Shown here: in pieces, positions 7,912 through 58,334 of the stretch
How positions within the stretch are numbered: position 1 is the first letter of the stretch
How the letters are laid out: each line of letters starts with the position of its first letter
Source: Eledone cirrhosa
Taxonomy: Eukaryota
Length of the DNA stretch: 64,000 nucleotides
Direction: 5' to 3'
NCBI GenBank assembly: GCA_964016885.1
Contig: OZ024740.1
Span: 87,792,001 to 87,856,000 of the forward strand
The notes under the pieces: model-generated
Told to the model about the DNA's origin: nothing
Databases searched by the model: none
Seen by the model: only the letters and a program-made list of their open reading frames with translations
Program-made: the position numbers and the translations under genes

Positions 7912-8942
7912 TTAATAAAGTTAGTCCTTCATCAGTGATCTCCCAACCTTCATTGGTATTTCATCGCTTTAAAGATCATATACCTCCGGTTGGTGCGAGC
8001 AACGGCTAAAGAAAGTCGTTGGGACACGTAAATAAAGGGAACGAGCGAGACTGTAAACAATCAAAGATGGTAATGCAACGAAAAGTGAGGAAGGAGGAGT
8101 CAAGTCCCAGAATTCTATGAATATACGTTCTGTGAAATCGTGGACGAGAGAGAATAAAGACCATCAAACCTAGTCGAAATGTGAGCAAGGAAAGAATTTC
8201 GCACAGGTCAAACTGGAGGAAGAAGGAGTCTAGTCCCTGAATTCGGTGAACATAAGTTCTGTGAAATCGTAGACAAGAGAGAAAAAAAAGGAACAACCAA
8301 CCAGGTCAAGTGTGCGCGAAGAAAGAATTTCGCACAGGTCAAACGGGAGTAAGTAGGAGAGGGAGTAGCAGAGAGTGAGTGAGTGAAGGGTGAGGAAGAG
8401 GTTAACAGAGATAGTGACTGTTAGAGAGGGTAAAGGGAGGTGAATGATACAGAGAAAGAGGAAGCAGTAAGAATGAAATTAACGGGTCACAGCGGAGGAA
8501 AATATATGTGTGAATATGAAAACAAGACGTGCTGTGTGGTTGCAAATGGGTTACATATGAATAAAGTTAATCCTTCACAAGTGATCTTCCAACCTTCATT
8601 GGTATTTCATCGCTTTAAAGACCATATACCTCCGGTTGGTGCGAGCAACGGCTAAAGAAAGTCGTTGGGACACGTAAATAAGAGGAACGAGCGAGACTGT
8701 AAACAATCAAAGATGGTAATGCAACGAAAAGTGAGGAAGAAGGAGTCAAGTCCCAGAATTCTATGAAGATAAGTTCTGTGAAATCGTGGACGAGAGAGAA
8801 TAAAGACCATCAAACCTAGTCGAAATGTGAGCAAGGAAAGAATTTCGCACAGGTCAAACGGGAGGAAGAAGGAGTCTGGTCCCTGAATTCGGTGAACATA
8901 AGTTCTGTGAAATCGTAGACAAGAGAGAAAAAAAAGGAACAA
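7912..8942 (-). repeat. Partial tandem repeat (period 646 bp), PLE pseudo-LTR-like
   Basis: Near-identical blocks offset by 646 bp (ORFs at 8006 and 8652); homologous to 37568-38706, which abuts a PLE RT ORF. Confidence 0.85.
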
Positions 8943-11603: not shown

Positions 11604-11616
11604 CATATATATATAT

Positions 11617-12036
11617 TAGAATTGGTGACTGAAATAGCGATGTATATATGAATGTATATATAGTGTATTTGGTAATACACTGTATGCTTAATTAAAAGCA
11701 TTTTGAAGACCTTACGCTATTGTTTTAAAGTAGTGACTATGTCACTTACTTCTTTTTTCAAGAAACAAAGGGAGATAAGCTGACAGATCTCTGTTTCATA
11801 CTGTTGGTATTCCTCAGAGCTTAGCACTCCCCTTGTTTGTTGAAAATTATGAATGTTGGATTCTTATAGAATTCCAGTAATAATCAGGAACTGATTATAC
11901 AGAGCGGTTGCCGGTCCAGCAAAAATTGAAAATTAGAATTGGTCCTCTGAATTAACGATGTATATATGAATGTATATATAGTGTATTTGGTAATACATGT
12001 ATGCTTAATTAAAAGCATTTTGAAGACCTTACGCTT
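11617..12036 (-). repeat. Diverged ~1.3 copies of the 316-bp HHR repeat (family A)
   Basis: Shares ATTAGAATTGG, TATGCTTAATTAAAAGCATTTTGAAGACC and TAAATAATCAGGA with the 13.5-14.7 kb array; the unit restarts near 11931. Confidence 0.85.
11776..11823 (-). ncRNA. Canonical type I hammerhead ribozyme (family A, C3-G8)
   Basis: Minus strand: UAAGCU CUGAGGA AUAC caaca GUAU GAAA CAG agau CUG UC|AGCUUA; all stems fully paired; cut between 11782 and 11781. Confidence 0.88.
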
Positions 12037-12835: not shown

Positions 12836-12839
<4 letters not shown>

Positions 12840-13364
12840 TATAGATGAGATTCTACAGGACTAGAACTGTTTCATTCATTAGAAATCATCAGGAATCTGG
12901 GTATCAAAAAATAAGTATGGTATTTATAGGTCTCTTCAGGTGGTAGGAGAGGGTAGGGAGTGGGATGGGTGTAGGTCATTGGTTGATAGAAAAGGGAATT
13001 CATTAAAAGCTAATTCTTCAAAGCTATAGTTTATTTTTAGAGTAACAAAGGCAGAAAGAATTCTATAAACAAGTTCAGGATGGGGTGCCACTCCTTATTA
13101 TTAAGTTTCTCTTAAGCTAACAGGTGTCTATAAGATCATTGGGGGTCAGTTATGGTTGATGGATTTAAGGAAAAGGGAGATTCTTTAAAAGCTAAATTCT
13201 TTAAGGTTCTACTAAGTGACAAAGAGAATTCTATAGACCAATTCAAAATATTGAGTGCATATCATACGATTATCTTCAAATTTCTCTTAAACTATTCAAC
13301 TATATGCCAAAAATCAATAGACATTCACTCACACACTCGCGCGCACCCACACTTACATATATTC

Positions 13365-13454: not shown

Positions 13455-13626
13455 ATATACACATATATATACATATACACACACATATATATACACATAT
13501 ACACATACACATATATATATATATGGATGTATATATAATGTATTTTGCAATACACTTTATGCTTAATTAAAAGCATTTTGAAGACCGTAAGCTATTGTTT
13601 TAAAGTAGTGACAAATTCACTCACTT

Positions 13627-13721
13627 TGATCTCAGCAAACAGGGGAGATAAGCCGACAAGACTTGTTTCGCTTTGGTTGAAGCTTATCAAGGCCAACTAC
13701 CCCACCTGTTTACTGAGATCA
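13627..13721 (-). ncRNA. Hammerhead ribozyme, U3-A8 variant (family A, unit 1)
   Basis: Minus strand: GGCC UUGAUAA GCUU caacca AAGC GAAA CAAG u CUUG UC|GGCU with distal stem I GAUCUCAGUAAACAGG/CCUGUUUGCUGAGAUC; cut at 13655/13654. Confidence 0.82.
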
Positions 13722-13942
13722 TTGATGTTATATTCTTATAGAAATCTAGTAAATAATCAGGAGCTGATTATGCAGAGCGGTTGTTGGTCAGGCAGAAATT
13801 AAAAATTAGAATTGGAGCTCTGAAATAGCAATATATATATGGATGTATATATAATGTATTTTGCAATACACTTTATGCTTAATTAAAAGCATTTTGAAGA
13901 CCGTAAGCTATTGTTTTAAAGTAGTGACAAATTCACTTACTT

Positions 13943-14037
13943 TGATCTCAGCAAACAGGGGAGATAAGCCGACAAGACTTGTTTCGCTTTGGTTGAAGCT
14001 TATCAAGGCCAACTACCCCACCTCTTTACTGAGATCA
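13943..14037 (-). ncRNA. Hammerhead ribozyme, U3-A8 variant (family A, unit 2)
   Basis: Same motif offset by 316 bp; one substitution in distal stem I. Confidence 0.82.
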
Positions 14038-14258
14038 TTGATGTTATGTTCTTATAGAAATCTAGCAAATAATCAGGAGCTGATTATGCAGAGCGGTTGT
14101 TGGTCAGGCAGAAATTAAAATTTAGAATCGGAGCTCTGAAATAGCAATATATATATGGATGTATATATAATGTATTTTGCAATACACTTTATGCTTAATT
14201 AAAAGCATTTTGAAGACCGTAAGCTATTGTTTTAAAGTAGTGACAAATTCACTTACTT

Positions 14259-14353
14259 TGATCTCAGCAAACAGGGGAGATAAGCCGACAAGACTTGTTT
14301 CGCTTTGGTTGAAGCTTATCAAGGCCAACTACCCCACCTGTTTACTGAGATCA
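14259..14353 (-). ncRNA. Hammerhead ribozyme, U3-A8 variant (family A, unit 3)
   Basis: Same motif offset by 632 bp. Confidence 0.82.
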
Positions 14354-14502
14354 TTGATGTTATATTCTTATAGAAATCTAGTAAATAATCAGGAGCTGAT
14401 TATGCAGAGCGGTTGTTGGTCAGGCAGAAATTAAAAATTAGAATTGGAGCTCTGAAATAGCTCCTGATTATTTACTAGATTTCTATAAGAATATAACATC
14501 AA

Positions 14503-14597
14503 TGATCTCAGTAAACAGGTGGGGTAGTTGGCCTTGATAAGCTTCAACCAAAGCGAAACAAGTCTTGTCGGCTTATCTCCCCTGTTTGCCGAGATCA
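14503..14597 (+). ncRNA. Hammerhead ribozyme, U3-A8 variant (family A, inverted unit)
   Basis: Core TTGATAA 14534-14540; stem II 14541-14554; GAAA 14555-14558; GTC 14567-14569; cut after 14569. Confidence 0.82.
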
Positions 14598-14728
14598 AAG
14601 TGAGTGAATTTGTCACTACTTTAAAACAATAGCTTACGGTCTTCAAAATGCTTTTAATTAAGCATAAAGTGTATTGCAAAATACATTATATATACATCCA
14701 TATATATATTGCTATTTCAGAGCTCCAA

Positions 14729-14806
<78 letters not shown>

Positions 14807-15238: not shown

Positions 15239-15343
<105 letters not shown>

Positions 15344-15360
15344 ACCACCACTACCACCAC

Positions 15361-16644
15361 GCCCGTAAGACCTTTCTATACCACGATGGATCTTACTGGA
15401 TCAACAGGAAATCTCAGACCCCATTTGACGTTATCATGAGAGCGAGTGACTCGGCTGAAATTAGCGACCTTGTGGGCTTGTACATCCTACATCACCTGAA
15501 GAACCTCTTTACCGGCCTAACCGGAGGTTTATACCGAGACGACGGCCTCTTCGCCCCGCACACGGTTAACCCCAGAACCACCGATGGGTTTCGGAAAAAC
15601 TTAAGCTCGTTCTTCTCTAATCTAGGATTTAGTATAACTATAGAATCTAATTTGACTAGGGCCAACTTCTTAGATGTCACTCTCGACCTAGATACTTCCC
15701 TCTATTACCCGTACCACAAACCTAACGAGTCCCTTAGATATATTAATGTTAATTCAAACCACCCCCAAAACATCACTGATAACTTAGTAAAAAGCGTCTC
15801 TATTAGAATATCTAGCCTCTCCGCCAACAAAGATATTTTGAACGCCTCTGCCTCCTACTACAATGACGCCCTCGCCCGCAGCGGATTTAAAGAAAAGATA
15901 ACCTACCTAGAAACCACCGCAAGGTTGCAGAGGAGGAATAGGCATAGGCAGATTAGCTGGTACAACCCTCCTTTCAATAGAGAGGTCTCTACGCTGATAG
16001 CTAGGATTTTCTTCACTTTGCTGAAAATACACTTCCCCATACAACATAGGTACCACACCATCTTTAATAAGAACACAATAAGACTCTCCTACTCCACCAC
16101 ACCTAGCCTAGCTAGGAATATAGCCAACCACAATTCTAAAAAATTAAATAAGCCAACCACCTCCGAACCCAATCCCCGGACTGGGGCTTTGTGTAATTGC
16201 CTAAATAAGGAAGCATGCCCACTTGAAAACAAATGCCTCACAAATGATATCGTATACAAATGCGATATCATCTCAGGCACCGATGATTGCAATAACAAAA
16301 AAACTTTCATCGGCATGACTTCCAATAATTTTAAGACCCGTTGGTATGCCCATACCCACTCCTTCAGAAAACCGGACAAATCAAACCAGACAACACTCGC
16401 CTCCTATGTTTGGGACCTCAAAAGGAACTCCACCCCTTTCACGCTTAAATGGAAAATACTCCAGAAAGCGCGCTCTTACAACGGAGGACACAAGAGCTGC
16501 GACCTTTGTATCTCAGAGAGCTACGAAATTTTATTCTCCAAGGGCCCGCTACTGAACAAACTCTCTGAACACTGCCCGAACTGCATGCACAAGAACTTTG
16601 CAACTTTCAAATACTTTAAGCCAGTGTTAAAGCCCGATGGCTAA
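15361..16644 (+). CDS. 5'-truncated Penelope-like element RT + GIY-YIG endonuclease (Naiad-like)
   Basis: [65 protein letters not shown]; the ORF N-terminus (15211-15360) is only (CA)n read-through. Confidence 0.92.
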
Positions 16645-19911: not shown

Positions 19912-20530
19912 AGTGTGGGTGTATGTGGGTGCGCGCGAGTGTGTGAGTGAGTGTGTGAGTGAATGTGTCTGTTGATTTTTGGCATATAGTTGAATAGTTT
20001 AAGAGAAATTAGAAGATAATCGTATGATATGCACTCAATATTTTGAATTGGTCTATAGAATTCTCTAGGCCTTTGTCACTTAGTAGAACCTTAAAGAATT
20101 TAGCTTTTAAAGAATCCTCGCTTTTCCTTAAATCCATCAACCATGACTGACCCCCAATGATCTTATAGACACCTGTTAGCTTAAGAGAAACTTAATAATG
20201 AGTGGCACCCCATCCTGAACTTGTTTATAGAATTCTTTCTGCCTTTGTTACTCTAAATATAAACTATAGCTTTGAAGAATTTGCTTTTAATGAATTCCCT
20301 TTTCTATCAACCAATGACCTACACCCATCCCACTCCCTACCATCTCCTACCACCTGAAGAGACCTATAAATACCATACTTATTCTTTAATACCCAGATTC
20401 CTGATGATTTTTAATGAATGAAACAGTTCTAGTCCTGTAGATTCTCATCTATATTAAAACTTTTATACTCTGCAATGTATTGAGTACCTTACTTACTGTG
20501 GTTACCTCCGACTCAACCCGGAATAACGTA
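19905..20530 (+). mobile_element. PLE 3' pseudo-LTR and tail (family C)
   Basis: Inverted partner at 12836-13370; ends ..CCCGGAATAACGTA like the other tail copies. Confidence 0.8.
20395..20445 (+). ncRNA. Type I hammerhead ribozyme (family C)
   Basis: AGAUUC CUGAUGA uUUU uaau GAAu GAAA CAG uucuaguc CUG UA|GAUUCU; one mismatch in stem I. Confidence 0.65.
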
Positions 20531-20542
20531 CCTATATATATA

Positions 20543-21624
20543 CTAGAGAACAGTCAGGAACTAGAGAAAAACACAATGGAAAGCATCCTGCAAATAGCAA
20601 ACTCCATCCACCAGAGCATTAGAGTTACTATAGACTACCCAAGTAAACACCCCAACCATCGATTACCTGTACTAGACACAGAGCTCTGGTTAGATACCAT
20701 TAACAACAAAAAACAAATCCTCCATTCCCATTATGCCAAACCCATGACTTCCAAACATCTGATCCATCGAAACTCGGCCATTTCGGACCATACCAAAATC
20801 AACATACTGATTGCGGATTTGGTACGGGTGATGAGAAATGTGTCTCGCATCTGTAACCCCGAAGAACTAGAGAGACACATACAACACTTCATCCACCGTA
20901 TGCAGTTCTCTGGCTACAATAAAATCAGTGTATAGAGGAGCCAGAACCAAATGGGAAAAAATGGTAAATAATGACATAAATGGGACCTGCCCCTTGTATA
21001 GGAGCAAATTTTGGAATAGAATAGAAAGAACTAGGAACAAGGCTAATAGAATAAACTCAAAGGTATGATAGCAATAAATACCAGAGTGTAATGTTCATCA
21101 ATACAACCCCTAGAGGTGAATTAGCTTACAAATTTAGAAGGGCCCTAAATAAACATAAACTCAATATTAAGATAGTAGAAAGACCAGGTACCTCCGTAAA
21201 AACACTTATTAGCAAGACATACCCTTTTCAAAGACCCTCATGTATAGATAAGAAATGTATAACCTGTAAAATAAGCCCCCATATTAACTGTAAAACTAGA
21301 AATGTAGTGTATAGCATAAGATGTACTGAAGGACAATGTAGAGACAAAAATATAGTGTACATAGGTGAGACAGCTCGTAGTGTAGGGGAACGGATAAATG
21401 AACACTGGCGAGACCTTCAAGATAATAAAGAATCATCCGTACTCTACCAACATGCTAAGATAGAACACAAGGGTAAATTAGAGAACATAGAAATAAAAAT
21501 AGAATCTACACACAGAAAAGACGCAACGTTTAGACAAATTACAGAGGCAATAAACATAAAAGAATTACAACCAAAATTAAATAGAAAATATGAGTGGAAC
21601 AGCAACATCACAACTTACAATTAA
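20543..21624 (+). pseudogene. Second PLE family: RT thumb/linker + GIY-YIG, frameshifted and 5'-truncated
   Basis: DYPSKHPNHRLPVLDTELW..HYAKPM..RMQFSGY, then CITC..CKTRNVVYSIRC..YIGETARSVGERINEH..RQITEAINI..PKLN. Confidence 0.9.
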
Positions 21625-21806: not shown

Positions 21807-21851
21807 AGTCACTGAAGAGGTCACAGAGTGTGTGACGAAAGAACTATGACT
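21807..21851 (+). ncRNA. Minimal type I hammerhead ribozyme (family D) in PLE 3' region
   Basis: AGUCA CUGAAGA g GUCACA gagug UGUGAC GAAA GAAC UA|UGACU; cut after 21846; about 180 nt downstream of the GIY-YIG stop. Confidence 0.78.
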
Positions 21852-23541: not shown

Positions 23542-23749
23542 TTATACAGGCAATTCAAGCTGCACTTGACTAAGTACGCCTGGTTTAAAAAGCTACATAA
23601 GATCTCATCGCTGTACTGAATAAATTAAACTGAAGTGGTCAAGGTTTGTGTTTAGCAGACAACCAAAACCTGCACCCAACCCCTTGCTTCTGCTGAGATT
23701 AATAGAAGCTGCATTCTTATAGAATGCCAGTAATATTTAAGAGCTTTGC

Positions 23750-23901
23750 TTTTGCCGAGAATACGTAAGTGACATAGTCACTACTTTTAAACTCATAGCG
23801 AATGGTCTTCAAAATATTTTAAATTAAACATACAGTATATTGCCAAATATACTATACATACATTCATGTTTACATCGCTATTTCAGAGCACCAAATCTAA
23901 T
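23750..23901 (+). repeat. Diverged 3' part of the family-A 316-bp repeat (HHR not recognisable)
   Basis: GTCACTACTTT..GGTCTTCAAAAT..GCTATTTCAGAGCACCAAATCTAAT followed by (AT)n, as at 14612-14735. Confidence 0.75.
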
Positions 23902-27226: not shown

Positions 27227-27493
27227 TGAGTATGTGTCTGTAAATTAAAGGTGGAAAACTGGGAGAGGGCACTTGCCCTGGTGGTCAGGGTCATTGTGGC
27301 TTTTTAATGGGCTTTCTCCACCAATGTCCCTCGGAAGTCTCCCCCCTATTGGGAAATTTTTTCATTGTTCTATTATTACATCCTCTGTTTCCTTTTTTTT
27401 ACACGCAGAAATGCCCATTTGTACCGCCCTGTATTGTCCTGTACTGTCGTTAATGTCTACTTTATGTAAACCCTTGTGGTTAATAAAGAAATC
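27227..27493 (+). mobile_element. 3' fragment of the Tx1-like LINE
   Basis: Matches the ORF2 end and 3' UTR at 52307-52585; ends AATAAAGAAATC followed by (ATT)n. Confidence 0.92.
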
Positions 27494-27524
27494 ATTATTA
27501 TTATTATTATTATTATTGTCATTA

Positions 27525-30500
27525 CTCTTTGAGTCTCAGTCATTGATGTTAGTTAACTGGAAAGTTTGTTGAGATGAATATCAAGCCACTACCTGCAGCC
27601 TCAGATATTCAGGACGTATCGGAGGGTTCTTGCTGTTCCCAGCAAGCATGCCTTTTGAAGCGTTCCAAAAAGCGTGAAGGGGCCAATTTTCTTTAACCAT
27701 CCCTGGAAACCTTTTGAGATAGTCCCTAGTGCGCCTATGACAATCGGGATCACTTTGACTTCATGGCAGTTCCAAATCCTTTTTACCTCCCACTTTAAGT
27801 CCTGGTATCGGTTAATTTTCTCCCTCTACTTCTCTTGCACTCTCGTGTCGAATGGGCAGGCCACATCCACAATCAGGAACGATCTTTTTTCTTTGTCCAA
27901 AACCACCAGGTCAGGTCTATTGTGTTCCAGTTTCTTGTCCGTCTGTATCCTAAAATCCCACAGCACCTTCACCTGATCGTTTTCTATCACCGCCTCTGGC
28001 TTATACTCATACCACTTCTCAGAATGTGGTAAATTGTTTACTTTGCATAGGTGCCAGTGGATCACCCTGCCCATCACATCATGTCTCCAGTCCTTATAGT
28101 GAGTCTGGGCTAGGTGTTTACACTCGGATACAATGTGAGCCACAGTCTCCTCTCTCTCCACAGATCCTGCACAGTGGGCTAGCCTCCTCCTTGTAAATGT
28201 GGTGTTTCAACCACTTCGTTTTGAGGGCCTGCTCCTGCGCAGCCATTAACATTCCTTCTGTAGCCTTTTTAAGGTCTCCTCTTTTCAACCAGTTCCATGT
28301 CTGTGGATCTCTAAATTCAGTTTTCTCAAAGAAGGTACTATGAAGGGATTTTTCCCGAAGGCTGCTCTTTCTCCTTGATGTTATTTCCTCCTTGGACATC
28401 CCCTGGCCTATTGTCCCCTCCTTCAGTACAGCTCTGAGCATTGGCTCCTTACTATCAGTCACGTATTTGTGTAGGTTGTTTTTCTCCATCTGAACACAGT
28501 CCTCTATGCTGATAAGACCTCTTCCACCCTCAGATCTCCTTAAGTAGAGTCTATCGACATCACTCCTCTTGTGGAACATATTGTAGATAGTCAATAGCTT
28601 CCTAGTCTTCCTATCCATTTCTTTTTGTTCAGCAACATTCCATCTCAGAATTCCCGCACTGTACCTAATAATAGACACAGCTCGGGAATTTACTGCACTT
28701 ATGGCATTCCTACTGTTCAGATGTGACTTTAATACGCTCCTTACTCTCCGAATGTATTCAGATCTTATCAATTCCTTCATTTTTTTGTTCTTGATGTCAT
28801 ATGCCTCCAGAACACCCAAATACTTGTATCCTTCTTCAGTGTCAATTTCCTTTATCATCTCACCTGTTGGTATCTGGATTCCGTTACTTCTGCTCAATTT
28901 ACCCCTCTTCATCACAAGGACTCCACACTTACTAATACCAAATTGCATACATATATCATTGCTGAAAATACGAACAGTGTCAACAAGCACATCCAACTCC
29001 TTCTCACTCTTCCCGAAGAGCTTAAGATCGTCCATGAAGAGGAGGTGATTGATGGTAAGCTCTCCCTTTCCCAACTTGTATCCTGCTCTCACTTTTCGCA
29101 GTATAATAGTCAGGGGCATCAGGGCAAGGACAAACAACAGAGGGGACAGACTATCTCCCTGGAAGATACCTCTCTTGATCTTCACGCCTCCCAAGGATTC
29201 TCCAGCTGATGTTAACTCTGTTTTCCAGGACTTCATACTTTTGCACAACAACTGTCTGATGTTATCTGCCACCTTGAAGCTCTCTAGGATTTTGGTGATC
29301 CAAGAATGAGGCACCATGTCAAATGCCTTTTTGTAGTCTATCCATCCCATGGCAAGACCAGTGTGTCTCCACTTGCAATTCCTCATTACCATCTTATCAA
29401 TAAGTAACTGGTCCATTGTACCACGGGACTTCTTTCGGTATTCTTTCTGTTCGTCCGGTAACAAGTTGTTTGTGTGGAGGTGATGGTAGATTTCCTCTGA
29501 CATAATGCTTGTCAACAGTTTCCACATTACGGACAGACATGTGATAGGTCTATAGTTGGTAACATCATTACCCTTGATTCGGTCTTTCATTACCAGAACT
29601 GTGGTACCTTTTGTCAACCACTCTGGTACCTCACCTGACATCAAGCAGTCATTGAACATGGTTGTCAGTTTCGGGTGGAGGGATGTTATATTTTTAATCC
29701 AATACCCCTGCACACCATCTGGGCCTGGTGATTTCCAGTTGTTTAGTTTTTTGGCCTGCCCCTTAAGAGTTTCAACTGTGATACTCAAATCAGTTTGTTG
29801 GTGTGCCTGTTCGCTAATCTCCTTTTGTACTGTCTCAATCCACACTGCCTGGTCATTATGTTTAACATCCTGCTCCCATATTCCTCTCCAGAATGTCTTA
29901 GTTTGTTCCGCCTCAGGGATCAAGTCGTTGCCTCTTTCTTTCCCTTCAAGCTGTCCAAACAGCATCTTCTGGTTGTTGTCAAACATGCGATTCTGTCTAT
30001 ACTGACTGACTCTGCTCTCGTATCGCCTAATTTTTGCACTCTTTGCTACAATGCGTTGCTTCAGTTCGTCTATGATAATATTTAGCTTTTTCCTCCTAGT
30101 TTTGTAGTTTATTTACAGTCTATTTTTAGTGTCTATGTTTTTTAGTGTCCCATTCAGTAGGGACTCAAGCTTTCCAATGTCATTTCTCATTTCCCTGATT
30201 TGACCATTCAGTCGTTTCTTCCACCAAGGTTCTGATCTTTCTTGTTTGTTGTTTCCTCTCGCTTTTATGCCAAGTAATTTCCTCACCGCATTTGCTGTTG
30301 CTTTGAGGATATTGTTGCACTGGTGAAGGCTCCTCGCCTCAAGGTATGGGATGAATTTGTTTACCTTAGCTGTTGTTTCTTTTAACTTTTTCCTGTCTAC
30401 AAATCTTAGGTTCATAGGTTTCCCACTATCATTGTTCAATTCATCTACCACTAAGTTTAGGATATCAACCAAATCTTGTCCTAGCCCGTCAGCATTCATC

Positions 30501-31025
30501 TCCTCAATGGCCGTATCTCTGTTCCAGGTATTATTTATTTCAGCATTCAGATCATTGTCTGCTTCGGATGGTTCCCCCGTTCTCTCAACCTCTTCACCTT
30601 CATTTCCCACTGGCTCGTTTGCCTGGCATACTCCACTCTCCATTTCCAACCTAATCTCTCTGCTCAGCTGCTCCAGTTCCAGATCGCTTATCCACCCATT
30701 AGTTCTTATTACCCGAGCCTGCCCGGCTAATTTTTGTTCATCTAATTTAAATAGACCAATCTCGTTCCAGATGTTATGCATCCGTTTCCTATAGCCTTTC
30801 TCCTTGGGGTTACTCTTCAGGTAACATTGCATAGCAGTTCTATTCAATTCTTTCGTTCAGTTGGTTCTGGTCCCTTTCCTACTTCTTCTTCCTCCGACAC
30901 CAGCAGTATTTGCTTGACAGCCAGGTCCCTGCTGCTGAGCCAGGGAGCACCTGCTGGGTGAGTCTGTCACATGACATTCCAGTCTCCACTTCACCGTTAT
31001 TGGAACTGTTTAGGTTCGAGATTTA
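27525..31025 (-). mobile_element. Dong/R4-like non-LTR retrotransposon (family A), frameshifted
   Basis: N-terminal GYRKRMHNIW..EQKLAGQARVI; [46 protein letters not shown]; CRIC..HIVSEC, RHD, RPDLVV..IVDVACP (RLE); 3' end in (TAA)n. Family call from motif recall. Confidence 0.9.
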
Positions 31026-31122: not shown

Positions 31123-33481
31123 CAAAGGTTCTCAACCCATTTCGGCCAAACGCCCCCTTTTTCCCTTCGAAATTACGAACCCCCCCCTTTTTTTTCCCAT
31201 TTTTCAATATACTACTGATTTTGATATCAGTAGATTACTAAAAAAATGATTAACGATATTCCAAAGATACCATTGCAGGCAGTTGAAAGTATAAATACAT
31301 TCCTTGAAAGGAAGTATATAAATTTCAAAAATAGGAACATAAATGTTCTTTTTTATGAATTAGGACCAGTTGAATTTGTTATATTCTCACCAGACGATAG
31401 CAGCTATTTTGAACATTTATACAAGAGCAACTCTGTCTATCCAAAGAGTGCTCTTATATGGAAGAAAGTGGCAATTGTATTATTTCAAAGCTTTCCAATT
31501 TTCCCTTTAATGAAACGGACAGAATATATGTTGATATCTAACTTGATGTCCCCTCCGCTTAGAGACCTCGTAAGAGGGTATATTCATTAGTAAACAGTAA
31601 AATATATATAACAAATGAGTAAGTGAATTGTGGTAGATGGTTTCCAGTCCAGTCAGACTGCAACTACAAATAAAAAATCGACTTACTTTGACCTCGTATC
31701 AATGGGACTCTTGAGCTTCATGGAGTTTAGCTAACTCTTTGACGTCAGGATGGATTTTCGTGAGCTGTAACCGGAGATCTCCACGTGCAATCACATTGTA
31801 GCGGTTGCGAGCCTTACTATGCAGTCTGGAAACAACGCCAAACCCCCTCTCGACTAAGTATGAGCTAGGAAAAGGCAAAGCAAATCTCTTAGCCTCTGCA
31901 TGTAGGAGTGGAAATCGACGCTGAATTTCCTCTTGCATCCAAAGAAGGGGTTCACCTATTTTGGAAAATTTCATTTTGATAATGTCATCTGTCTGAAGTT
32001 CAATTAATTCTTCCTGAAATTTAACGTCGAAATCGTCGACGTTGGCTATGAAGGGATCTGCTATCCACATTGGGATGTCCATCTGCAAAAGGTCGACAAA
32101 CCGTTCTCTCATGTTGTCTTGTAGTGCACGGAGGTGCGCGGTATAAATTTGCAGTTGATCATCGCTTACAATGTTTTGAACATTGGCGACACTAGGAACA
32201 TTATAGAATTCCCGTCGACAAAGATTCCTTTCGATGACTTTCAATTTGGCCAGGAATATTTTCACAGCATTCCTTGCTTTAAACAAGGTGATCTTCTCCC
32301 CCTGCAAAGCCATAATGAGACTATTGCATTTGTCAAAGATGTCGGCGAGGTAGGCACAGTCTTTCCTCACATCGAGGTTTTTTTTATATAGTTCTGTGTT
32401 GCGTCCTCGAAGAAACTCAATGATAGAGTCGAACAGTTTAAAGAAGCGAGTAAGGCACTTGCCCTCTGAAAGCCACCTCACTTCAGTATGAAGGAGCAAC
32501 TCGACGAATTCTTCGTCATTATCTTCGCACAGTTGCCGGAAAATTCGTTCATTGAGGGCATGGCGTTTGATATAATTGATGACATCAATGGCTACCTGCA
32601 AAGACTTGCTCAGCGGCTCGCTGAGTTTCTTCGCAGCCAAGTGTTGTCGATGAATGACACAATGAACAGCAAATACAGATGGATTTTCCCTCTTCAGAAG
32701 AGAGACGAAACCCTTATGTTGGCCGACCATTGCTCTTGCGCCGTCCGTAGCACATGATACAATATTGTTAAGAGGTATCTCTTTTTCTTCGAGGTATCCC
32801 TTGACAGATTCAAAGATCGTGGCACCTTTAGTATCTGTGGCTAGATTCAGAGTGAAGAGAAGCTCCTCGTGCATTTCGTTTTGGTGGAAAAATCGCACGT
32901 ATCCCAATAGTAAGGACTGATTCCCGGAAAGTGTGCTTTCATCAAGTTGAAAAGCAAATTGTGTCGATTTCAAGATGTTGCATAATTGTTGTTCAACATT
33001 TTCCGCCATTTCGTCGATGCGTCTCCTTATTGAGTCGTTACTCAACGGAATACATTTCAAGGTCTTTAACGGGTTCTGACGTAGTACTGTTGAAAGAACT
33101 TCTGAGATGACAGGGGCTACCAATGTTTCACCCAAGGAATGGAGCTTGCCACACTTTGCGATTATGTTAGCAATATTGTAAGATGCGACAAGTCCATCAA
33201 CATTTGAAGCTTCAACTTTTGAAAAGGCAGAAGACATTAGTGTTGTTTTCTGGAATTGTTCCCTAAGAGACTGAAAGTATGCTAAATCTTTACATCTCTT
33301 ATCGGGGTGCCTCACCTCCAGGTGTCTACTCAAACGTGATGGCCTCATCGCCTCATTCGAAAAGGACTCCCTGCAAATTAAACACATGGGTAACAGGTGG
33401 TTCGACGGCGATGGGATGAATCCGAACCGTAAGTAATCAAACGCTGTGCTGCCTGCATTTTTTCTTCATTGCTGAGGCCAT
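31123..33481 (-). mobile_element. hAT (Charlie/Buster-type) DNA transposon; transposase 31699-33481 with an N-terminal frameshift
   Basis: BED finger CLIC..MRPSRLSRHLEVRH, FQLDEST, CATDGA, HCVIHRQHL, TEVRWLS, FPSSYLVERGF; TIR-like CAAAGGTTCTCAACC at 31123 preceded by CTGTAGAC (central TA). Confidence 0.9.
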
Positions 33482-37493: not shown

Positions 37494-37567
<74 letters not shown>

Positions 37568-37572
<5 letters not shown>

Positions 37573-38706
37573 ATAAACGTGCTGCGGAGTTGCAAATGGG
37601 TTACATATGAATAAAGTGGTCCTTCATCAGTGATCTTCCAACCATCATCGGTAATTCTTCGCTTTAAAGACCATATACCTCCGGTTGGTGCGAGCAACGG
37701 CTAAAGAAAGTCGTTGGGACATGTAAATAAAGGGAACAGCGAGAGTGTAAACAAACAAAGATGGTGAAGCAACGAAAAGTGAAGAAGAACGAGTCAAGTC
37801 CCAAATTTCCATGAATATAAGTTCGGTGAAATCGTGAACGAGAGAGAATAAAGACCATCAAACCTGGTTGAAATGTGAGAAAGGAAGGAATTTCACACAG
37901 GTCTAACGGGAGGAAGAAGGGGTCTAGTCCGTGAATTCGGTAAACATAAGTTCTATGAAATCGTAGACGAGAGAGAGAAAAAATGCCAACCGGCCTGGCG
38001 AAGCGGGCGAAGAAAAGAATTACGCACAGGTCAAACGGGAAGAAGGAGGAGGAGGAGGAGGAGAGGTAGTAACAGAGAGTGAGTGAGTGAAGGGTGAGGA
38101 AGAGGCTAACAGAGAGAGTGACTGTTAGAGAGGGTAAAGATACAGAGAAAGAGGAAGCAGTAAGAACGAAAAAGACGGGTCACAGCGGAGGAAAAAAATA
38201 TGTGTAAATATGAGAATAAACGTGCTGCGGAGTTGCAAATGGGTTACATATGAATAAAGAGGTCCTTCATCGGTATTTCAAATGGGTTACATATGAATAA
38301 AGTGGTCCAACCATCATCAGTATTTCTCGCACCAACCGGAGGTATATGGTCTTTAAAGCGAAGAAAATACCGATGATGGTTGGAAGATCACTGATGAAGG
38401 ACCACTTTATTCATATGTAACCCATTTGCAACTCCGCAGCACGTTTATTCTCATATTTACACATATTTTTTTCCCCCGCTGTGACCCGTCTATTTCGTTC
38501 TTACTGCTTCCTCTTTCTCTGTATCTTTACCCTCTCTAACAGTCACTCTCTCTGTTAGCCTCTTCCTCACCCTTCACTCACTCACTCTCTGTTACTACCT
38601 CTCCTCCTCCTCCTCCTCCTTCTTCCCGTTTGACCTGTGCGTAATTCTTTTCTTTCGCACGCTTGGCCAGGCCGGTTGGCATTTTTTCTCTCTCTCGTCT
38701 ACGATT
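37568..38706. repeat. PLE pseudo-LTR-like unit (about 640 bp) plus inverted copy
   Basis: 37568-38280 is homologous to 7912-8942 and the unit restarts at 38210; 38326-38706 is in the opposite orientation. Confidence 0.88.
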
Positions 38707-40374
38707 TCACAGAGAAACCTTTTTCCAAGAGATGTTATATTTAATATTTTTGTCTTTCAAGGACCATATGAGTTCTGAGAGAGCCGTGTTGGTTCTTTTA
38801 AGTTTATATTTAAAAGACGAATGATGATTATAAAGACGAGCTTTTAAGGAGGTGGAAGTGGAGCCAAAATAGGTGAAGGAATTGGTGTCAGTTATAACTT
38901 TACATTCGAAAATTAAGTTTTTATCAAGACAATGGTTGTTGAGAGGACATTTATTTTTAGCAGGGCAATTGCAATTGCGATTAGAGAGATTATTAACGAG
39001 TGACCTAGTGTTATCTATAGAAGGAATTGGATTGGAGAAGTTATTTGCGATAGGAATAATAGTTTCTTGATTTAGAATGGGATTAAGAACATTTAGCGAA
39101 GTTGTGTTTGACGTTGTATTTGGGTTTGCAGAAATTAGCCTAGGGTTTACAATGACGTCGGGAGTACTATTACTATTATTATGATATTCAGTGTTGGAAG
39201 GAAGAGATTTAGTATTTAGTATTTTATTGTTATGTTTAGAGATAATGTTGGAAATGTTGGAGGATGTCGAATAGGAAAATTTTATAGTGTGTTTGTTAAA
39301 TATTTTACTATAGATATGTGAGGGAGGGAAGCATTTATTTAAGGCACTAAAGAATAATTTAGGAATATTATTATTAATAGAGATGGAGAAAGGAGCATTA
39401 TACCAGATTATGTTTTTGTATCTAGGTCTTTTATTACAGTTATTGGAATGATCATGATTAATTATTCTACTGTAAGATCTTCTAGAATTTGTTTCTTTAT
39501 TATATTTGATTTTATCAGGATAGCCGACTTTAGAAAGCGCGTTATTATAGTAATTGGCGTTAGCATCGAAGATGTTTTTATTAGAAGATAGGTTAGATAT
39601 TCTTTTTCCAATATTACTAACTATAGTATTCATAATATTAGTAGGGTGGTTAGATTTAAAATTAACATAATTTAGGTTCTCATTGTTTTTATGGTAAGGG
39701 TAATATAGGCCAGTGTCAAGATTAAGAGATACATCCAAGAAATTAGCTAGTTGGATGCTGTTATCAAATTCAATTTTTAGGTTATGTTGGTTAAAGAGAT
39801 TACGTATATTGTTCTTAATAATATTAAGGTTAACTATGTTGCAATTTAAGATAGTAAAGAGTCCATCGTCACGATAAATTCCACCGCGAAGTTGAGGAAT
39901 TTTCCGACTCAAAGAGTTCAAAATAAAGATACCAATTAAATCAGTCAATTGGGATGAATCGGATGCTCCCATTGTGATGTCGAAGTTGTTAGAAGTATCA
40001 GCTCTGGTCCAATATTCATTGTTGAACTCAAGGATGGTTTTACGTGCGGTGAGAATGATGTGAAGTTCATCTGTGGTGATGTCAGATTATTTAAATGCGA
40101 AAGATAGAGCATTGTTGAGAAGTGAAGGCGAAATAGAAGAATAGTAGCTGGCAATATCAAATTGAACAAATTTTAGTTTGTTTTTATTATTCAATTTGTT
40201 GAACCAGTCAATCACTTCAGAAGTACCAAACCATAAATTTAAGTTCAAAGAAGAGCAATTAGAACGAACCTGTGGGATAATTCTATCCAAGATGGCTTTA
40301 CTAACAACCCCCAGATCTGATTTAGAGGGGGCGATTAATCTAACAGGTAGTTCAGTGCGAAAACTGTTTTTGTG

Positions 40375-40378
<4 letters not shown>
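38707..40378 (-). pseudogene. Penelope-like (Naiad-like) RT + partial GIY-YIG with one in-frame TAA
   Basis: PVRLIAPSKSDLG, FVQFDIASYYSSI, stop at 40087-40089, FDITMGASD, GIYRDDGL, NFLDVSLNL, NIIWYNAPFS, CNC..CPL..CL, YFGST; truncated by the inverted repeat. Confidence 0.92.
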
Positions 40379-40422
<44 letters not shown>

Positions 40423-40970
40423 CATACATATATACATACATACATACATTTGATATGATCTGTCTTTTTTGTTTGGTAAGGAGAACATTTTTGTCGCCAG
40501 ATTTTATTACCTAGGGAGATAAATACCACACTTCTGGCTGAAAGCTGACCAGGTTCTCAACCTCATCAAACACTAATGCCGACCTGTGTGTGTATATATA
40601 TGTGTGTGTGTATGTATGTGTATATATGTGTGTGTGTGTATGTTCACCACCATTGCTTCTTCTTGTCATTTCTGTTGAAGGAGTCCTTACTTTCATTCTC
40701 TTTGATTTCTTTTGATTTTCTTTTATCTCCCTAGGGAATTCGTTGACAAGCTTCTTTTATTTATTTTCTTCGTTTTCTTCATTCAAATCACTGACTGTCT
40801 AAGAGACGTACAAATATGACTTATCAAACTTACCAAACTAAAGGGGCTTCTAGCGCCCTCAAATTTTCAAACGCCCCCTTACTGCATAACAACGCCTCCC
40901 TACGCCACCTCACAGCATAACGCCCCCCCCTGGAGCAACGAAACGCCCACCGGGGTGGGGGGTGGGGATT

Positions 40971-41639: not shown

Positions 41640-44600
41640 AGTTGCATTTATCTTGCTTTATGTTCATACGAGTCACAACCAGTGACCTCAAGAGACAACA
41701 AGGTCCGCCATGTTCAAGAAAGAACATACATACTCACACATGCATCTTTAGTGTTTAGACTTGTGATGTACTTATATTGACAGAATCTTCCTTAGTATAT
41801 GGGCAGTTCCAATTAGTACTATCTTTTGTATTTCTCCTATACGCGGGCTTCCTGGGATTTGCGATAAGTAATCATTAGACCCCTTAGGTATCATTCCCAG
41901 AGCGCCTACAACCACTGGTATTGTTTTAGTTCTCAATTTCCACATTTTTCCAATTTCTATCTCCAGGTCCTTATACTTGCTCAATTTTTCAAATGTTTTT
42001 ATAGATACATTCTTGTCTATTGGAACGGACATATCAATTAGCAGGCATACCCTCTTTTTAAAGTCCTTCAATACTATATCAGGTCTATTTGCATCTAGTT
42101 TTAGGTCTGTTTGGATGCTAAAGTTCCACAAGATTGAGAAGTGATCTTTTTCAAGTATGGGAGGTGGTTGATGCTCCCACCAATTCTTTTGATGGGGCAG
42201 GTCAAAATGCTTACACATTATCCAATGTATGTATTGTGCAGCTCTGTCATGCCTGTTTAGGTATTCGGTTGGAGCTATAGGACTGCACATTGAAATTATA
42301 TGGTCAATGGTCTCTGGTTGTTTTTTACATACACGGCATAATGGGCTGCATCCATTTTTTATTATGTTGGCTTGGTAATTTTTTGTTGGCAAACACTAAT
42401 CTTGTGCTGATATAATCAGTCCTTCAGTCTCCGATTTCAGTCCAGAGGATGCCAACCACTGATGGGTTAAAGTTTTGTCAACATCAGGATTGTTAGCTCG
42501 TTCTAGGTATTTTCCATACAGAGGCTTTTCTTGCCATTTCTTAGCCAGTTTCTTTGCAGTTACTTTTACCTGCTTTGCTTTTTCTGTGTTTTCCATTTCA
42601 GCAGTAAATGGGACTTCTGAAATTTGTAGTCCATTACTGTATCTTTGTGCATCTTTTGTAATGGAGTATGATCTTTTGATGCTTTCGTGTTTCAAAACGA
42701 GTTTGATCATCCAATCATGTGATTCCCTTAGATATGTAGATAATCCAATTGTTGCAGTTTTCAACGCAATGTCTAACTGGATTAACCCACGTCCTCCTTC
42801 TTTCCTAGGGAGATATATTCTATCTGTATCTGCCTTAGGGTGATGCATTCTGTGCATGGTTAAGAATTTTCGAAGTTTTGTATCGAGCTTACGGATCTCT
42901 GTGCTTGACCAGTTGATGACATTGTAACTGTAGGTTACTACTGGTATGCCAAGCGTGTTTATGGCATCGATCCTATTCCTTGCATTCAATTCCGTTCTTA
43001 AGATTGCTCTTACTCTGCGGTAACAATCCTTCCTTATCCTTTCCCTCATTGTCGAGTGTGCTTGATTCCGTCTCCTTCACAAACACCTAGATATTTGTAA
43101 GTTTCCTCTTGATCAAGTTCTCTTATCACATTCCCCCGATCAAGATTAATGTCTGAACTTTTCAGCAGCTTTCCTCTGGTGAACGTTGCTTTGGCGCATT
43201 TATCTAGTCCAAACTCCATTTTAATGTCATCACTGAACTGCTCCACGGTGGATAATAGCCCTTGCAATTGTTCATAATTTTTTGCAAATAGTTTCAGGTC
43301 ATCCATGTAGAACAAGTGATTAATGGTTTTGTCATAGACTTTATATCCATGTTTTGTTTCATTGAGCATTTTACTTAATGGTATAAGTGCGATGCAGAAT
43401 AAAAGCGGTGATAAAGAGTCACCCTGAAAAATTCCACAATTAATATTAACTTCTCCAGCTTCCAGTGATTTTGTTTCACTATTCAAAAGGAGTGTCGTTT
43501 TCCATGTCTTCATACTGAATGACAAAAACCTCCTGACAACGGGAGATATTTTGAAAATCTCTAAACATTTTTCAATCCAACTGTGTGGCAAACTATCGAA
43601 TGCTTTTTTATAATCTATCCAAGCAATTGATAGATTTTTGTGTCTATTATGACAATATTCCAGTATCATTTTGTTAACCAAAAGCTGATCCTTACAGCCA
43701 TATGAGCCTCGTTTACACCCTTTCTGCTAAATGGGAAATAGGTCATTTGTTATCAGGTGGTCATATGTATATTCAGTTAGGACTGATGTTAAAATGTTAT
43801 ACATTGTGGTCAAGCAAGTTATCGGTCTGTAATTTTTGGGATTGTTTGTCTCATCATTCTTCGGAAGCAGGAATGTAATGCCGTTAACTAGCCATTATGG
43901 TATCTTTTCTGGATCCTTAACTATTTCATTGTAAAGTTGGGCTCACAGCTCATGAGACTCTGTAAAGGCATTTATCCAAAAATTTTGTATTTTGTCTTTT
44001 CCTGGGGATTTCCATTTGCTGGTTTTTCTTAGAGCCAAACGCAACTGTTCAACTGTTATATTTTCCAATATTTGTTCCTCAAGGTGAGCTGTATCTTTCA
44101 TTTGTCTGTCTATCCATGGGGCATGTATATTATGAACTTTTTCTTCGGCCCAGATCTTTTCCCAGAATTCTTGCACTTCCTCCTTGGGTGGTATTGATTT
44201 AGCAGCTATTGTTGACTTTTCTGTAGAAGTTTCTTTGGTTGTTTTTGAACATATTATTGTCCTTATAGAATCTAGATCGTTTTTCAAAGCGCCTTATACG
44301 AGCAGCTTTGGCCGACACTTTTTGCTTGATTATTTCTATCAGCATGTCTATGTCACTTGTTGATTTTATACTGTACTTTCTTTTCAATTTTCTAAGTTTA
44401 GTTTGTTTAACATGTTCACCTACTTTATAGTTTGTTAAAATTTCTATGTCAGATCGGAGAAGGTTTATTTGGCGATTGATGTTCTCTTGCCAAGTAGATT
44501 TCTTGTGGGAATTCCTTTGTTTTTTCATTTTCACTCCACATAAGTGAGTGATGACTTTAGCCGATGCATAATAGAGATGATTTAAATCAGTAATGTTTAG

Positions 44601-45562
44601 TTTGTTTGTGATGATAATGTCTTTGAGAATTATGTTAGTCTTGTGTATTATCTATTGGTTCTGTTTGGAGTTCTGGATCTTAGGGAGGGTGTCTCGTTCC
44701 CCCATGTCAGATTCTTTCATTTTCATCCATTCGATCATAATTTCATCCTTCAAGTTGGCAAGTTTATTCTCATTCATTTCTTTATCATTTACGATCTCAT
44801 TGTTTTCATTTTGAGTTTCATCTTGAGCATGCACTCCCTCCACTTTTTCGATCCTTTCTTTAATTTGTTCTGTTCTCAGTGATTCCGCCCCAACCCTGGG
44901 ATTCGAAGTGTTACAATTTACCTCGTTTTCACTGACACATGTTTCATTTTCCCTTCGCTGACTTTGTGCTAATAGCTTGATCTGATCAATTTCTATATCA
45001 GTTAGTAACTTTTTTTTTACAATATTTCTTCGTATATTGGCTAGTTTGTTACTGTCAATATAGCCTCTGTTTTCGGGATGTTTCTTTTTCCAGTTGATAT
45101 GTGTCTGTTCTGTATTCGATGTATTTGATGGGTAGTACATGGCAGTGTAGAAAGCCTCAAGGACTTCTTTATTATCTTCCCTTGACCATTTTTCTCTCTT
45201 TTTCTTTGGATTTCTTGGTGGTGAGCATGGAGGGCCAACAGTAGGAGTATTCCGGTTATGGGAGGTCTCCAGCTCCGAAGTGATGGGAAGGTTTGAACCA
45301 TTAGCTGATTTTTCGACCCCAGTCTGGTTCCTCTCTGAGGGACGCGGCCCTTTTTGACCTGGGTGACGGCCGATCCGGTATGAGATTTTATCATTAGACA
45401 TTTACTTTATTTTGTCGCGTTTTATCCTTATCCGCCAAGGGGTAATCATTTCGTGTTACCACTTCCAGGACGAGTGTCAACCAAGACTAGAGGGGTCGTC
45501 CTCCCCTAGAGACACGGCTATTCCCCGCCGGCCGCCATCCCGGTATTTCTTGATCACGGGGT
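41639..45562 (-). mobile_element. Dong/R4-like non-LTR retrotransposon (family B), near full length, frameshifted
   Basis: [86 protein letters not shown]; 3' end in (TAA)n; structured 5' UTR. Confidence 0.9.
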
Positions 45563-46532: not shown

Positions 46533-46768
46533 TTATTATTATTATTATTATTATTGAATGCCATGGTTGACGGAGGCTCGGCTCTGTAAGGTATAGTAAT
46601 TTTTAACCCTTAAAACAATTGTAAATTGTTTAAAACTTGAACCAAATTGTTGATAAAGACACCCTCCTCCTCGTGAGAGGGGTCTTTCTGTCCGTTATTT
46701 GGCCCTTCGGGGTTAAATAATCAGTTATTGGGGTTTTGTACCCAAAATTTCATTTTAAACAAAAAAAC

Positions 46769-48868: not shown

Positions 48869-48903
48869 GTGGTCTTTCCCATCTTTTCCACTCTATTTTA
48901 AAC

Positions 48904-51900: not shown

Positions 51901-52323
51901 CGGGCATGTCCGAGATGCGCGCAGGGCGACGAAACCGTCCTGCACGCACTCGTCCAGTGTCCGAAAATTGCTGACTTGTGGGTTTATGTCGAACACCTGC
52001 TGTCGCGTTTAGGACGGATCCAGCTATCATCTGAGTCCATCGTGAGGATTGCCCCGCCCTCCTCCTTTAGCCGGGAAGGGCAGGCAGTTTTTATCTGTCT
52101 GGTGGCCATGGCGAAAGAGATAGTATGGTGGACACGTTTGAAAGGGCTGAAGACGAGCACTTACCTCTTCGGTGATGCTCTGATTGACTTTTTCAAATTT
52201 CATTTGAAAAGGAAAATCAGAGTAGAGAGGGAAGTGCTCTCTTCCCAGCATTTTGTTGAAAGATGGGTGAGAGAAGCAAGAATGGCCCGAGTGAATGGGC
52301 CGACTCTGAGTATATATCTGTAA
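48904..52323 (+). CDS. LINE ORF2: APE endonuclease + RT + C-terminal Cys/His motif (1139 aa)
   Basis: SINARGL, ISET, VYAP, GDWN, SYLDR, TDH; GYWKLN, KSPGLDGLPYE, FRPITLLN, DQSKAFDRV, QGCPLS, YADD; CPRC..HALVQC. Confidence 0.95.
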   Translation: MTSLRIGSINARGLGSSWKQGHLLNDLRSLNIDVVAISETRISEARAFAPIFGGYDVYASPSRPGSGGGVAVLFRRGLDLAIRAIFLDPEGKLVVLDVTSGDGQAFRLVAVYAPTGAGRPDFFRRLETFLGTSRSLVLVGDWNGILDARWDCVGLADRGGGCKSLTNLLRRFELSDRYRLDFPNVPMWTWTNRIGSSRSYLDRVFCREIDRSSIGCPQFKIVSYTDHKFVICVLDLDRLHRRGPGYWKLNASLPARKAYRDRISELVKRALTGAIVNNKWWFALKRAIRIESIRFSKALAIEKNRAEGELVRKLDEALSKGIATDVLAAKLALDQFFNAKHEGCVVRARVRALRHEGTKAVQWARVAEARRGNKATIRSLVDHDGRMLLDPGQMCETFQRHFAQLFGGSGGPGRGMDFSVYLDGLPRLSATEARCCEKPITAAEVREAMTGCTRGKSPGLDGLPYELYVQMPDLFGGLLADVYCNWQQNGRIPSSVSRGAVALLRKDPNKGDNIDNFRPITLLNTEFKILAKVLAKRLALVVGGLVGEAQTCAIPDRSIHDNLHLMRYIVERVAREPGTGGSLINLDQSKAFDRVDHRYLAAVLRAAGFGPVFRGWIAAMHSDICSVVRVNGHLSEPFNIMRSVRQGCPLSSLLYVLTLEPLLHKLETLRGVPRELGCGRSVSAYADDVTVVVSNAKHIEAIGTTLREYEAVTGAMINQEKSVGLQLGTWRGRSMPSNSVVGRWTDGPVKLLGVWFGPDLQTDKNWDEVTSRVASLTQKWAERKLSLKGRAEVANAYIASVICYRLTVVPCPKPRLTALERLLFRFLWKGRAPMVRRSICCQHPLRGGLGMPWLMMRRHALRLRHLHLFLDGDQVWSPFARRVFPQLVSLTELQSWVKRRPRGSAWRLECLQALTALDQSGNVIGGNSTSAFYRGLVEGKSDDVLGETLGVDENQLANLFGRTFGPGPMDNFQKSLAWQCYRGALPVRDKLYRHGGAVSRACPRCAQGDETVLHALVQCPKIADLWVYVEHLLSRLGRIQLSSESIVRIAPPSSFSREGQAVFICLVAMAKEIVWWTRLKGLKTSTYLFGDALIDFFKFHLKRKIRVEREVLSSQHFVERWVREARMARVNGPTLSIYL

Positions 52324-52583
52324 ACTAAAGGTGGAAAACTGGGAGAGGGCACTTGCCTTGGTGGTCAGGGTCATTGTGGCTTTTTACTGGGCTTTCTCCA
52401 CAAATGTCCCTCCGAAGTCTCCCCCCTATTGGGGAATTTTTCATTGTTATTTTCATTGTTATTTTTGTTACATCCTCTGTTTTTGTTTTTTTACACGCAG
52501 AAATGCCCATTTGTACCGTCCTGCATTGTCCTGCACTGTCCTTAATGTCTACTTTATGTAAACCCTTGTGGTTAATAAAGAAA

Positions 52584-53680: not shown

Positions 53681-53711
<31 letters not shown>

Positions 53712-55967: not shown

Positions 55968-56199
55968 ATTATTATTATTATTATTGAATGCCATGGTTGA
56001 CGGAGGCTCGGCTCTGTAAGGTATAGTAATTTTTAACCGTTAAAACAATTGTAAATTGTTTAAAACTTGAACCAAATTGTTGATAAAGACACCCTCCTCC
56101 TCGTGAGAGGGGTCTTTCTGTCCGTTATTTGGCCCTTCGGGGTTAAATAATCAGTTATTGGGGTTTTGTACCCAAAATTTCATTTTAAGCAAAAAAAAC

Positions 56200-58299: not shown

Positions 58300-58334
58300 G
58301 TGGTCTTTCCCATCTTTTCCACTCTATTTTAAAC

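Follow-up and report, generated by a model that had tools for sequence, protein, structure and literature searches.

Units of non-LTR retrozymes measure 150-450 bp (Cervera and de la Pena 2020, PMC7229834), and a preprint derives these elements from the pseudo-LTRs of Penelope-like elements, or PLEs (Li, Clavereau and Pollet, bioRxiv 10.64898/2026.07.22.740005); here and below, statements on cited work refer to the available parts of each text. The same preprint reports that eight of nine predicted Xenopus retrozymes were inactive in vitro, so a motif that looks intact is often inactive. Natural covariation of the hammerhead core pair from C3-G8 to U3-A8 is also on record (Perreault et al. 2011, PMC3088659), and about 1,300 U3-A8 motifs beside C3-G8 motifs have been described in the PLEs of Schistosoma mansoni, called Cercyon (Cervera and de la Pena 2014, PMC4209133).

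Here we describe a 316-bp repeat family that carries both core variants within one 64-kb stretch of DNA from a repeat-rich animal, apparently a cephalopod, the whole of which was analysed and is called the window below. We consider it probable, at roughly 0.8, that both motifs are type I hammerheads of one non-coding mobile repeat family, which would most likely be a non-LTR retrozyme borrowing PLE enzymes, and that the U3-A8 lineage probably cuts mainly as a dimer.

A 316-bp repeat family with two hammerhead variants

BLASTN placed three loci of the family in the window: a dispersed copy that bears the C3-G8 motif, an array that bears the U3-A8 motif, and a more diverged fragment. Their features are as follows.

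11615..12035, minus strand: dispersed copy of 1.3 units (BLASTN, termini)
11756..11846, minus strand: C3-G8 form of the type I hammerhead motif, its helix I extended (sequence, descriptor match, fold)
11818..11826, minus strand: 5' strand of proximal helix I and a 3-nt internal loop starting with U
11811..11817, minus strand: 5' catalytic core C3-U4-G5-A6-G7-G8-A9 (C3 = 11817, G8 = 11812)
11798..11810, minus strand: helix II of 4 bp with A10.1-U11.1, and a 5-nt loop (11802-11806) ending in A
11783..11797, minus strand: GAAA core (11797-11794) and near-palindromic helix III (4 bp, 4-nt loop)
11781..11782, minus strand: predicted cut directly 3' of C17 in a GUC triplet (hammerhead consensus position)
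13515..14461, minus strand: three head-to-tail 316-bp units, each with a U3-A8 hammerhead (TRF)
14459..14735, plus strand: fourth unit, inverted and truncated at its 5' end, with U3 of its U3-A8 hammerhead at 14534
23680..23901, both orientations (minus in 23680-23735, plus in 23751-23901): third family locus, a more diverged fragment

The dispersed copy reads as a partial unit, a full unit and about 25 nt of the next unit, followed by (TA)n. The three array units are 98-100% identical to one another, with U3 at 13690, 14006 and 14322 on the minus strand, and the fourth, inverted unit stops before (TA)n where the dispersed copy does too. The fragment at 23680-23901 shares this 3' end and has no hammerhead core. 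Three of the family ends coincide about 25 nt past the unit junction and then give way to (TA)n, and because most family ends run into (TA)n, target-site duplications are hidden. This combination of a partial tandem, an inverted 5'-truncated copy, a short extension at one end and microsatellite targets matches the layout described for PLE insertions, where partial tandems, inverted copies, one-sided extensions and microsatellite targets occur together (PMC8557442). The units also resemble retrozymes in size and content: at 316 bp they fall inside the 150-450 bp range, each holds one type I hammerhead, the repeat region has 33% GC in 2-kb bins (below the 50% retrozyme limit), and no ORF of at least 120 aa was found in them except microsatellite frames at the edges. 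As circles, the two units are predicted to fold with z-scores of -6.4 and -6.5 (100 shuffles each).

Two further observations concern the surroundings of these copies. The fragment at 23680-23901 is inverted close to the place where the ribozyme would be expected, and the ribozyme itself is absent. A pair of inverted repeats of about 510 bp, 95% identical (12838-13346 and 19941-20455), brackets the array together with the PLE-like ORF at 15.3 kb.

To locate hammerheads, the 64-kb window was scanned with a descriptor of the full type I motif that accepts either core, C3-G8 or U3-A8. It returned five type I motifs, the copy at 11756-11846 and four in the array, and none of 200 block-shuffled windows held any such motif. 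The 91-nt stretch 11756-11846 folds with a z-score of -3.98, none of 200 shuffles being equally stable, and the array hammerhead stretch with a z-score of -7.61. In standard hammerhead numbering on the minus strand, C17 of the dispersed copy is 11782 and nucleotide 1.1 is 11781; its proximal helix I has 6 bp, the partner of the 5' strand being 11776-11781. Both variants show the core rule of the hammerhead (CUGANGA...GAAA...UH or its U3-A8 covariant, three helices, helix I open).

The conserved reverse Hoogsteen pair of the hammerhead loop contact joins a U with an A. Both variants have a 3+1 internal loop that starts with U and lies 6 bp from the core, and in both loop II ends in A; the contact between loop 1 and loop 2 has been described as a conserved reverse Hoogsteen pair (PMC6155905). 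At the gathering score, Rfam gave no match for either variant. With E-values up to 10, the four array copies matched HH9 weakly (24.1-24.6 bits versus a cut-off of 52, E 0.005-0.008), and the 11756-11846 copy was absent among the 44 Rfam matches.

Homology and covariation of the two core variants

The sequence-only reading held that the two motifs are positionally homologous, and this was borne out. The dispersed copy and the array unit align over the whole unit at 78.5% identity (317 columns), and in the MAFFT alignment the 5' core and the cleavage site of both variants share columns; non-homology, which would have refuted that reading, is thereby contradicted. The one-column shift of GAAA comes from the loop lengths, with loop II having 5 nt in the dispersed copy and 6 nt in the array, and loop III 4 nt and 3 nt. 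The minus-strand sequence that had been quoted for 11756-11846 is present as written, and each pair change that had been listed relative to the array (3-8 and stems I, II and III) is real; three of the six proximal helix I pairs had been quoted.

We compared 15 pairs anchored on the core, made up of the pair 3-8, four pairs each from helices II and III, and six from proximal helix I. Between the dispersed copy and the array, seven of these changed on both sides, one changed on one side, one is broken and six are unchanged. All four pairs of helix II changed on both sides. The one-sided change is 2.4-1.4 (A-U in the dispersed copy, G-U in the array), and the broken pair is 2.5-1.5, which is A-U in the dispersed copy and U.U in the array and which the sequence-only reading had not mentioned. 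Therefore, the earlier statement that all changes keep pairing, which applies to 14 of the 15 pairs, was overstated. When the same 16 changes were scattered at random in 200,000 trials, seven both-sided changes were reached in 7 trials with 60% transitions and in 217 trials with 90% transitions. Inclusion of 18 distal helix I pairs brought the set to 33 pairs with 10 both-sided changes, a number reached in none of the 200,000 trials at 60% transitions and in 6 at 90%. These counts leave out d5, which is bulged in the array, and 15.5-16.5. In the latter pair, too, both partners changed (A-U versus G-C), although in a monomer the loop inside it would have only 1-2 nt; its change fits the dimer pairing described in PMC4209133.

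The core was more conserved than the helices, with 2 differences among its 12 positions versus 14 among 26 in the helices (binomial P 0.0098); the two differing core positions are exactly 3 and 8 (chance 1 in 66). All of these covariation statistics compare two independent sequence types only. Taken as such a comparison, the sequences support past selection among subfamilies on hammerhead structure. The claim that the changes imply selection on ribozyme function thus holds for the hammerhead structure, through the excess of both-sided changes and the conserved core, and does not carry over to present-day cutting by the 11756-11846 copy. The natural core switch within one family is likewise real, and such switches had already been published (PMC3088659, PMC4209133).

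Predicted folding of monomers and dimers

In the dispersed copy, the active secondary structure is predicted to lie 0.7 kcal/mol above the minimum (P 0.038), and in the array monomer 6.2 kcal/mol above it (P 1.5e-5). For the genomic array dimer, which runs from 14036 to 13628 on the minus strand, the double hammerhead is predicted at 2.2 kcal/mol above the minimum, with a P of 0.0036 for both sites and 0.012 for one site; none of these energies takes account of tertiary contacts. The array monomer is predicted to misfold because 2.1-3-4-5 pairs with helix III. Placing a C3-G8 core in the array in silico removes 1.9 of the 6.8 kcal/mol ensemble gap, so the predicted misfold is not due mainly to U3. 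In both variants helix III is close to a palindrome and can consequently pair between two copies: that of the dispersed copy is predicted at -1.8 kcal/mol as a hairpin versus -12.2 kcal/mol as a two-strand duplex, and the array helix III hairpin alone is predicted not to be stable. Moreover, in both variants 2.1-3-4-5 reads the same as the helix III 3' strand (UCUG in the dispersed copy, CUUG in the array), an identity kept through matched changes at 3/15.4 and 2.1/15.5.

These folding models invite the reading that the core swap was a regulatory retuning, which we find unlikely. The pairing of the core with helix III would then be an off state, dominant in the U3-A8 monomer and relieved only in tandem transcripts, and A8 may have come in through a single template switch that copied helix I. 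The loose ends of two other subfamilies, which have no full 4-bp match, speak against it, as does the fact that all four changes are transitions. If it were true, the family would record the natural exchange of a catalytic core pair and also the shift of a retroelement between monomer-competent and dimer-only cutting.

Variation of the family in public DNA runs

Of eleven listed public runs, none recorded as RNA, four DNA runs (X1, X4, X5 and X9) were compared, using a filter of 80% likeness to the dispersed copy that disfavours array-type reads. The family is abundant: X1 yielded 4,381 contigs, and of 7,182 matching reads from X9, 6,382 fit only partly. Joints between opposite strands were present in X1 and X9, and head-to-tail junctions in X1, X4 and X5; together with the three loci in the window, these junctions show a family that is multi-copy, dispersed as well as tandem. 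X4 and X5, which carry other organism labels, yielded 37 and 16 contigs versus the 4,381 of X1. These may be traces of the same animal's DNA, and they are too shallow to speak for presence across species.

The site counts for X9 are unlinked frequencies, taken from the 40 listed of 178 variant positions, among which 11817 and 11812 (positions 3 and 8) do not figure. Partner sites varied at similar frequencies. At the paired sites 10.1 and 11.1, G was found in 336/614 reads (55%) and C in 420/704 (60%); at the paired sites 11840 and 11761, G was found in 523/685 (76%) and C in 487/774 (63%). N7 was U in 271/613 reads, and U stood at 2.5 in 189/658. The distal helix I of the 11756-11846 copy contains a C.C mismatch at 11839/11762. 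Since 715 of 774 X9 reads have G at 11762, which restores a C-G pair there, this mismatch is a minority state and probably a private change. Loose ends revealed further subfamilies with other letters in helices I, II and III, and among those of X1 there appears a subfamily matching the fragment at 23680-23901.

An exact search with a 22-nt flank in metagenome, viral and genome contigs recovered no stretch. Three metagenome loci picked up by a gapped pattern were rejected as chance matches, the best being 44 nt at 77%; no hammerhead core was found upstream of two of them (L001 and L003), and the third (L002) was judged from BLAST only.

Other mobile elements in the window

The window also contains PLE-like sequences. 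A GIY-YIG ORF (21055-21624) is followed by a minimal Penelope-type hammerhead at 21807-21850 on the plus strand, with its core at 21812, a 6-bp helix II after one bulged base and a 5-bp helix I, directly before (TA)n; it belongs to a different family from the 316-bp repeat. Two related PLE-like ORFs with reverse transcriptase and endonuclease, 35% identical, lie at 15334-16644 (plus) and 38707-40503 (minus). Neither had a Pfam match at E 0.001, and a minimal-hammerhead scan found none at their ends; the ORF at 15334-16644 has matches in Atlas clusters of RT, HTH_animal and GIY-YIG. The terminal repeat of the PLE-like element at 38.7 kb spans 37553-38713 and occurs again at 7914-8927. It comprises direct and inverted copies (38010-38274 versus 38390-38654, 98%) and contains CUGAUGA; helix II and GAAA were not detected in it.

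Other retroelements are present as well. Three LINE copies stand in tandem (46556-52435, 53003-55828 and 55986-61866), with ORF1 and a 1,195-aa ORF for endonuclease, RT and zf-RVT; the outer two share 99.7% identity over 3.9 kb, and the copy between them has an internal deletion. Copies of an RT-bearing non-LTR retrotransposon lie on the minus strand at 27227-30856, 61738-64000 and 41772-45401, with RVT_1 in 28118-30112, and 27227-29469 recurs at 61738-64000 with 93% identity. A 588-aa ORF at 31699-33465 on the minus strand had no Pfam match; we take it to resemble a hAT or Buster-type transposase.

Proposed mobilisation and alternative explanations

We propose that the family is spread as a retrozyme by PLE enzymes. 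Read-through transcripts of tandem copies would be cut after C17, once per unit, and the unit-length RNAs would be circularised. A PLE reverse transcriptase with its GIY-YIG nuclease would then copy the circle into (TA)n sites, and this copying would produce 1.3-mers, 3-mers and inverted copies. Between the repeat and the PLE-like genes or PLE ends within the 64-kb window there was no sequence similarity. Under this proposal, the helix letters of subfamilies would drift while pairing and core stay, because only variants that cut would spread; selection would act among element lineages, with core and pairing fixed and helix letters free. One lineage would have swapped C3-G8 for the tolerated U3-A8 and would probably cut mainly as a double hammerhead in tandem transcripts, and the C3-G8 form could fold as a monomer too.

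No part of the repeat has diverged as much as the ribozyme (24/43 positions identical, 56%, versus 189/222 in the flanks, 85%; Fisher p 7.5e-5). This fits constraint on structure only and also fits an exchange of cassettes, in which recombination or a jump of the reverse transcriptase between templates brought in one ribozyme from another subfamily as a module instead of by steps; the two ribozymes would then share a slot in the unit but have a much older separation than the flanks around them. Such an exchange is compatible with selection, and we regard it as rather unlikely. The X1 data lend it some weight, since the summed contig depth, about 300,000-670,000 where the flanks peak, drops to about 6,500-42,000 across the ribozyme, which is skipped or replaced in some contigs. 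However, constraint on structure likewise predicts faster change in helices, and high ribozyme variability has been reported for PLEs (PMC4209133). Reads at least 80% like the dispersed copy also have array-type letters at frequencies of 29-76% at several helix I and helix II sites, and one X4 contig combines array-type letters in helix I with a helix II 3' strand nearer to the dispersed copy, so the family looks like a graded series of subfamilies. It is also unlikely that the U3-A8 array is a weak or dead ribozyme, expanded passively by unequal crossover or by mobilisation free of cutting, with only C3-G8 subfamilies able to cut. The predicted trapping of the monomer through 2.1-3-4-5 and helix III, the unstable lone helix III hairpin, the U.U in helix I and the inactivity of eight of nine Xenopus elements in vitro (bioRxiv 10.64898/2026.07.22.740005) would all suit a dead array. 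Yet U3 and A8 are complementary and 14/15 pairs are kept, the genomic dimer lifts the active fold to a predicted P of 0.004-0.012 before any tertiary contacts, and U3-A8 is active in vitro according to PMC3088659, which cites its reference 32 for this. The 98-100% identity of the units, together with the inverted copy, points to recent insertion.

A mutational origin of the matched changes, by template switching that wrote one helix strand from the other with no selection on catalysis, appears very unlikely. The mechanism is published for RNA hairpins (PMC8794818), and the array stretch from 5 to 10.3, including A8, is perfectly reverse-complementary over 8 nt to the 3' strand of helix I in the dispersed copy; counted post hoc, 6 of 1,024 possible strings of U3-A8 core and helix II would match this by chance. 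However, template switching leaves unexplained why 10 of the 12 core positions stay fixed, and because 3-8 lies outside any hairpin stem, the arrival of U3 together with A8 is beyond its reach. It may at most supply variants that selection keeps, and it may be the source of A8. Chance resemblance or non-homologous motifs would accord with the Rfam results, in which no match reached the gathering score and the dispersed copy was missing from the 44 E-value matches. We consider this practically negligible, given the motif-free shuffled windows (0/200), the covariation and an alignment over the full unit in which the core and the cleavage site coincide. We retain as our preferred reading a PLE-mobilised retrozyme family whose subfamilies carry both core variants.

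Comparison with known systems

Across the partly covered literature, we found no account of the 316-bp family or of U3-A8 in a tandem retrozyme of full architecture. Since both the element class and the core variant have been published, the novelty is modest, and the value of the family is that of a test system and not of a mechanism new to science. It is one more retrozyme-like family, and its natural covariation is unusually clean. Its homologous, full-architecture pair of C3-G8 and U3-A8 motifs could be used to compare rates and monomer versus dimer dependence in native context, and across a genome so high a copy number could reveal which route the core pair takes, through a U3-G8 wobble or by a one-step change.

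The motifs share type I topology and a helix I internal loop with RF02275 (Hammerhead_HH9) and with Sm-alpha of Schistosoma. They are not members of RF02275, because the array scores 24 bits versus the cut-off of 52 and the dispersed copy is unmatched. The Cercyon hammerheads of Schistosoma show the same C3-G8/U3-A8 covariation within one animal genome, and palindromic helix III for dimers, high ribozyme variability and close copies in opposite orientation are found in both systems (PMC4209133). As described there, however, Cercyon hammerheads are minimal, without helix III or a defined loop 1, in repeats that flank an RT gene, whereas the motifs here have a 6-bp helix I, a 4-bp helix II, a complete helix III and candidate loop-loop elements, and the unit that contains them has no ORF. 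The core variants that the available text of Perreault et al. 2011 (PMC3088659) gives are scattered examples; in the present family the two states occur in subfamilies that can be aligned and lie about 2 kb from each other.

A close likeness is also seen to the non-LTR retrozymes of metazoans (PMC7229834; bioRxiv 10.64898/2026.07.22.740005). As portrayed in those texts, their tandem units are likewise short, non-coding and low in GC, with a single type I hammerhead each; they occur as monomers and multimers and share their genome with PLEs. Mussel and axolotl retrozymes likewise comprise two ribozyme subfamilies in one genome, and the dimer dependence of axolotl retrozymes has its counterpart in the dependence predicted here. 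Helix III has 4 bp here and is thus longer than the usual 1-2. In addition, the subfamilies of the present family differ in the core itself, at the 3-8 pair, a difference that the available text of those papers does not report for retrozymes.
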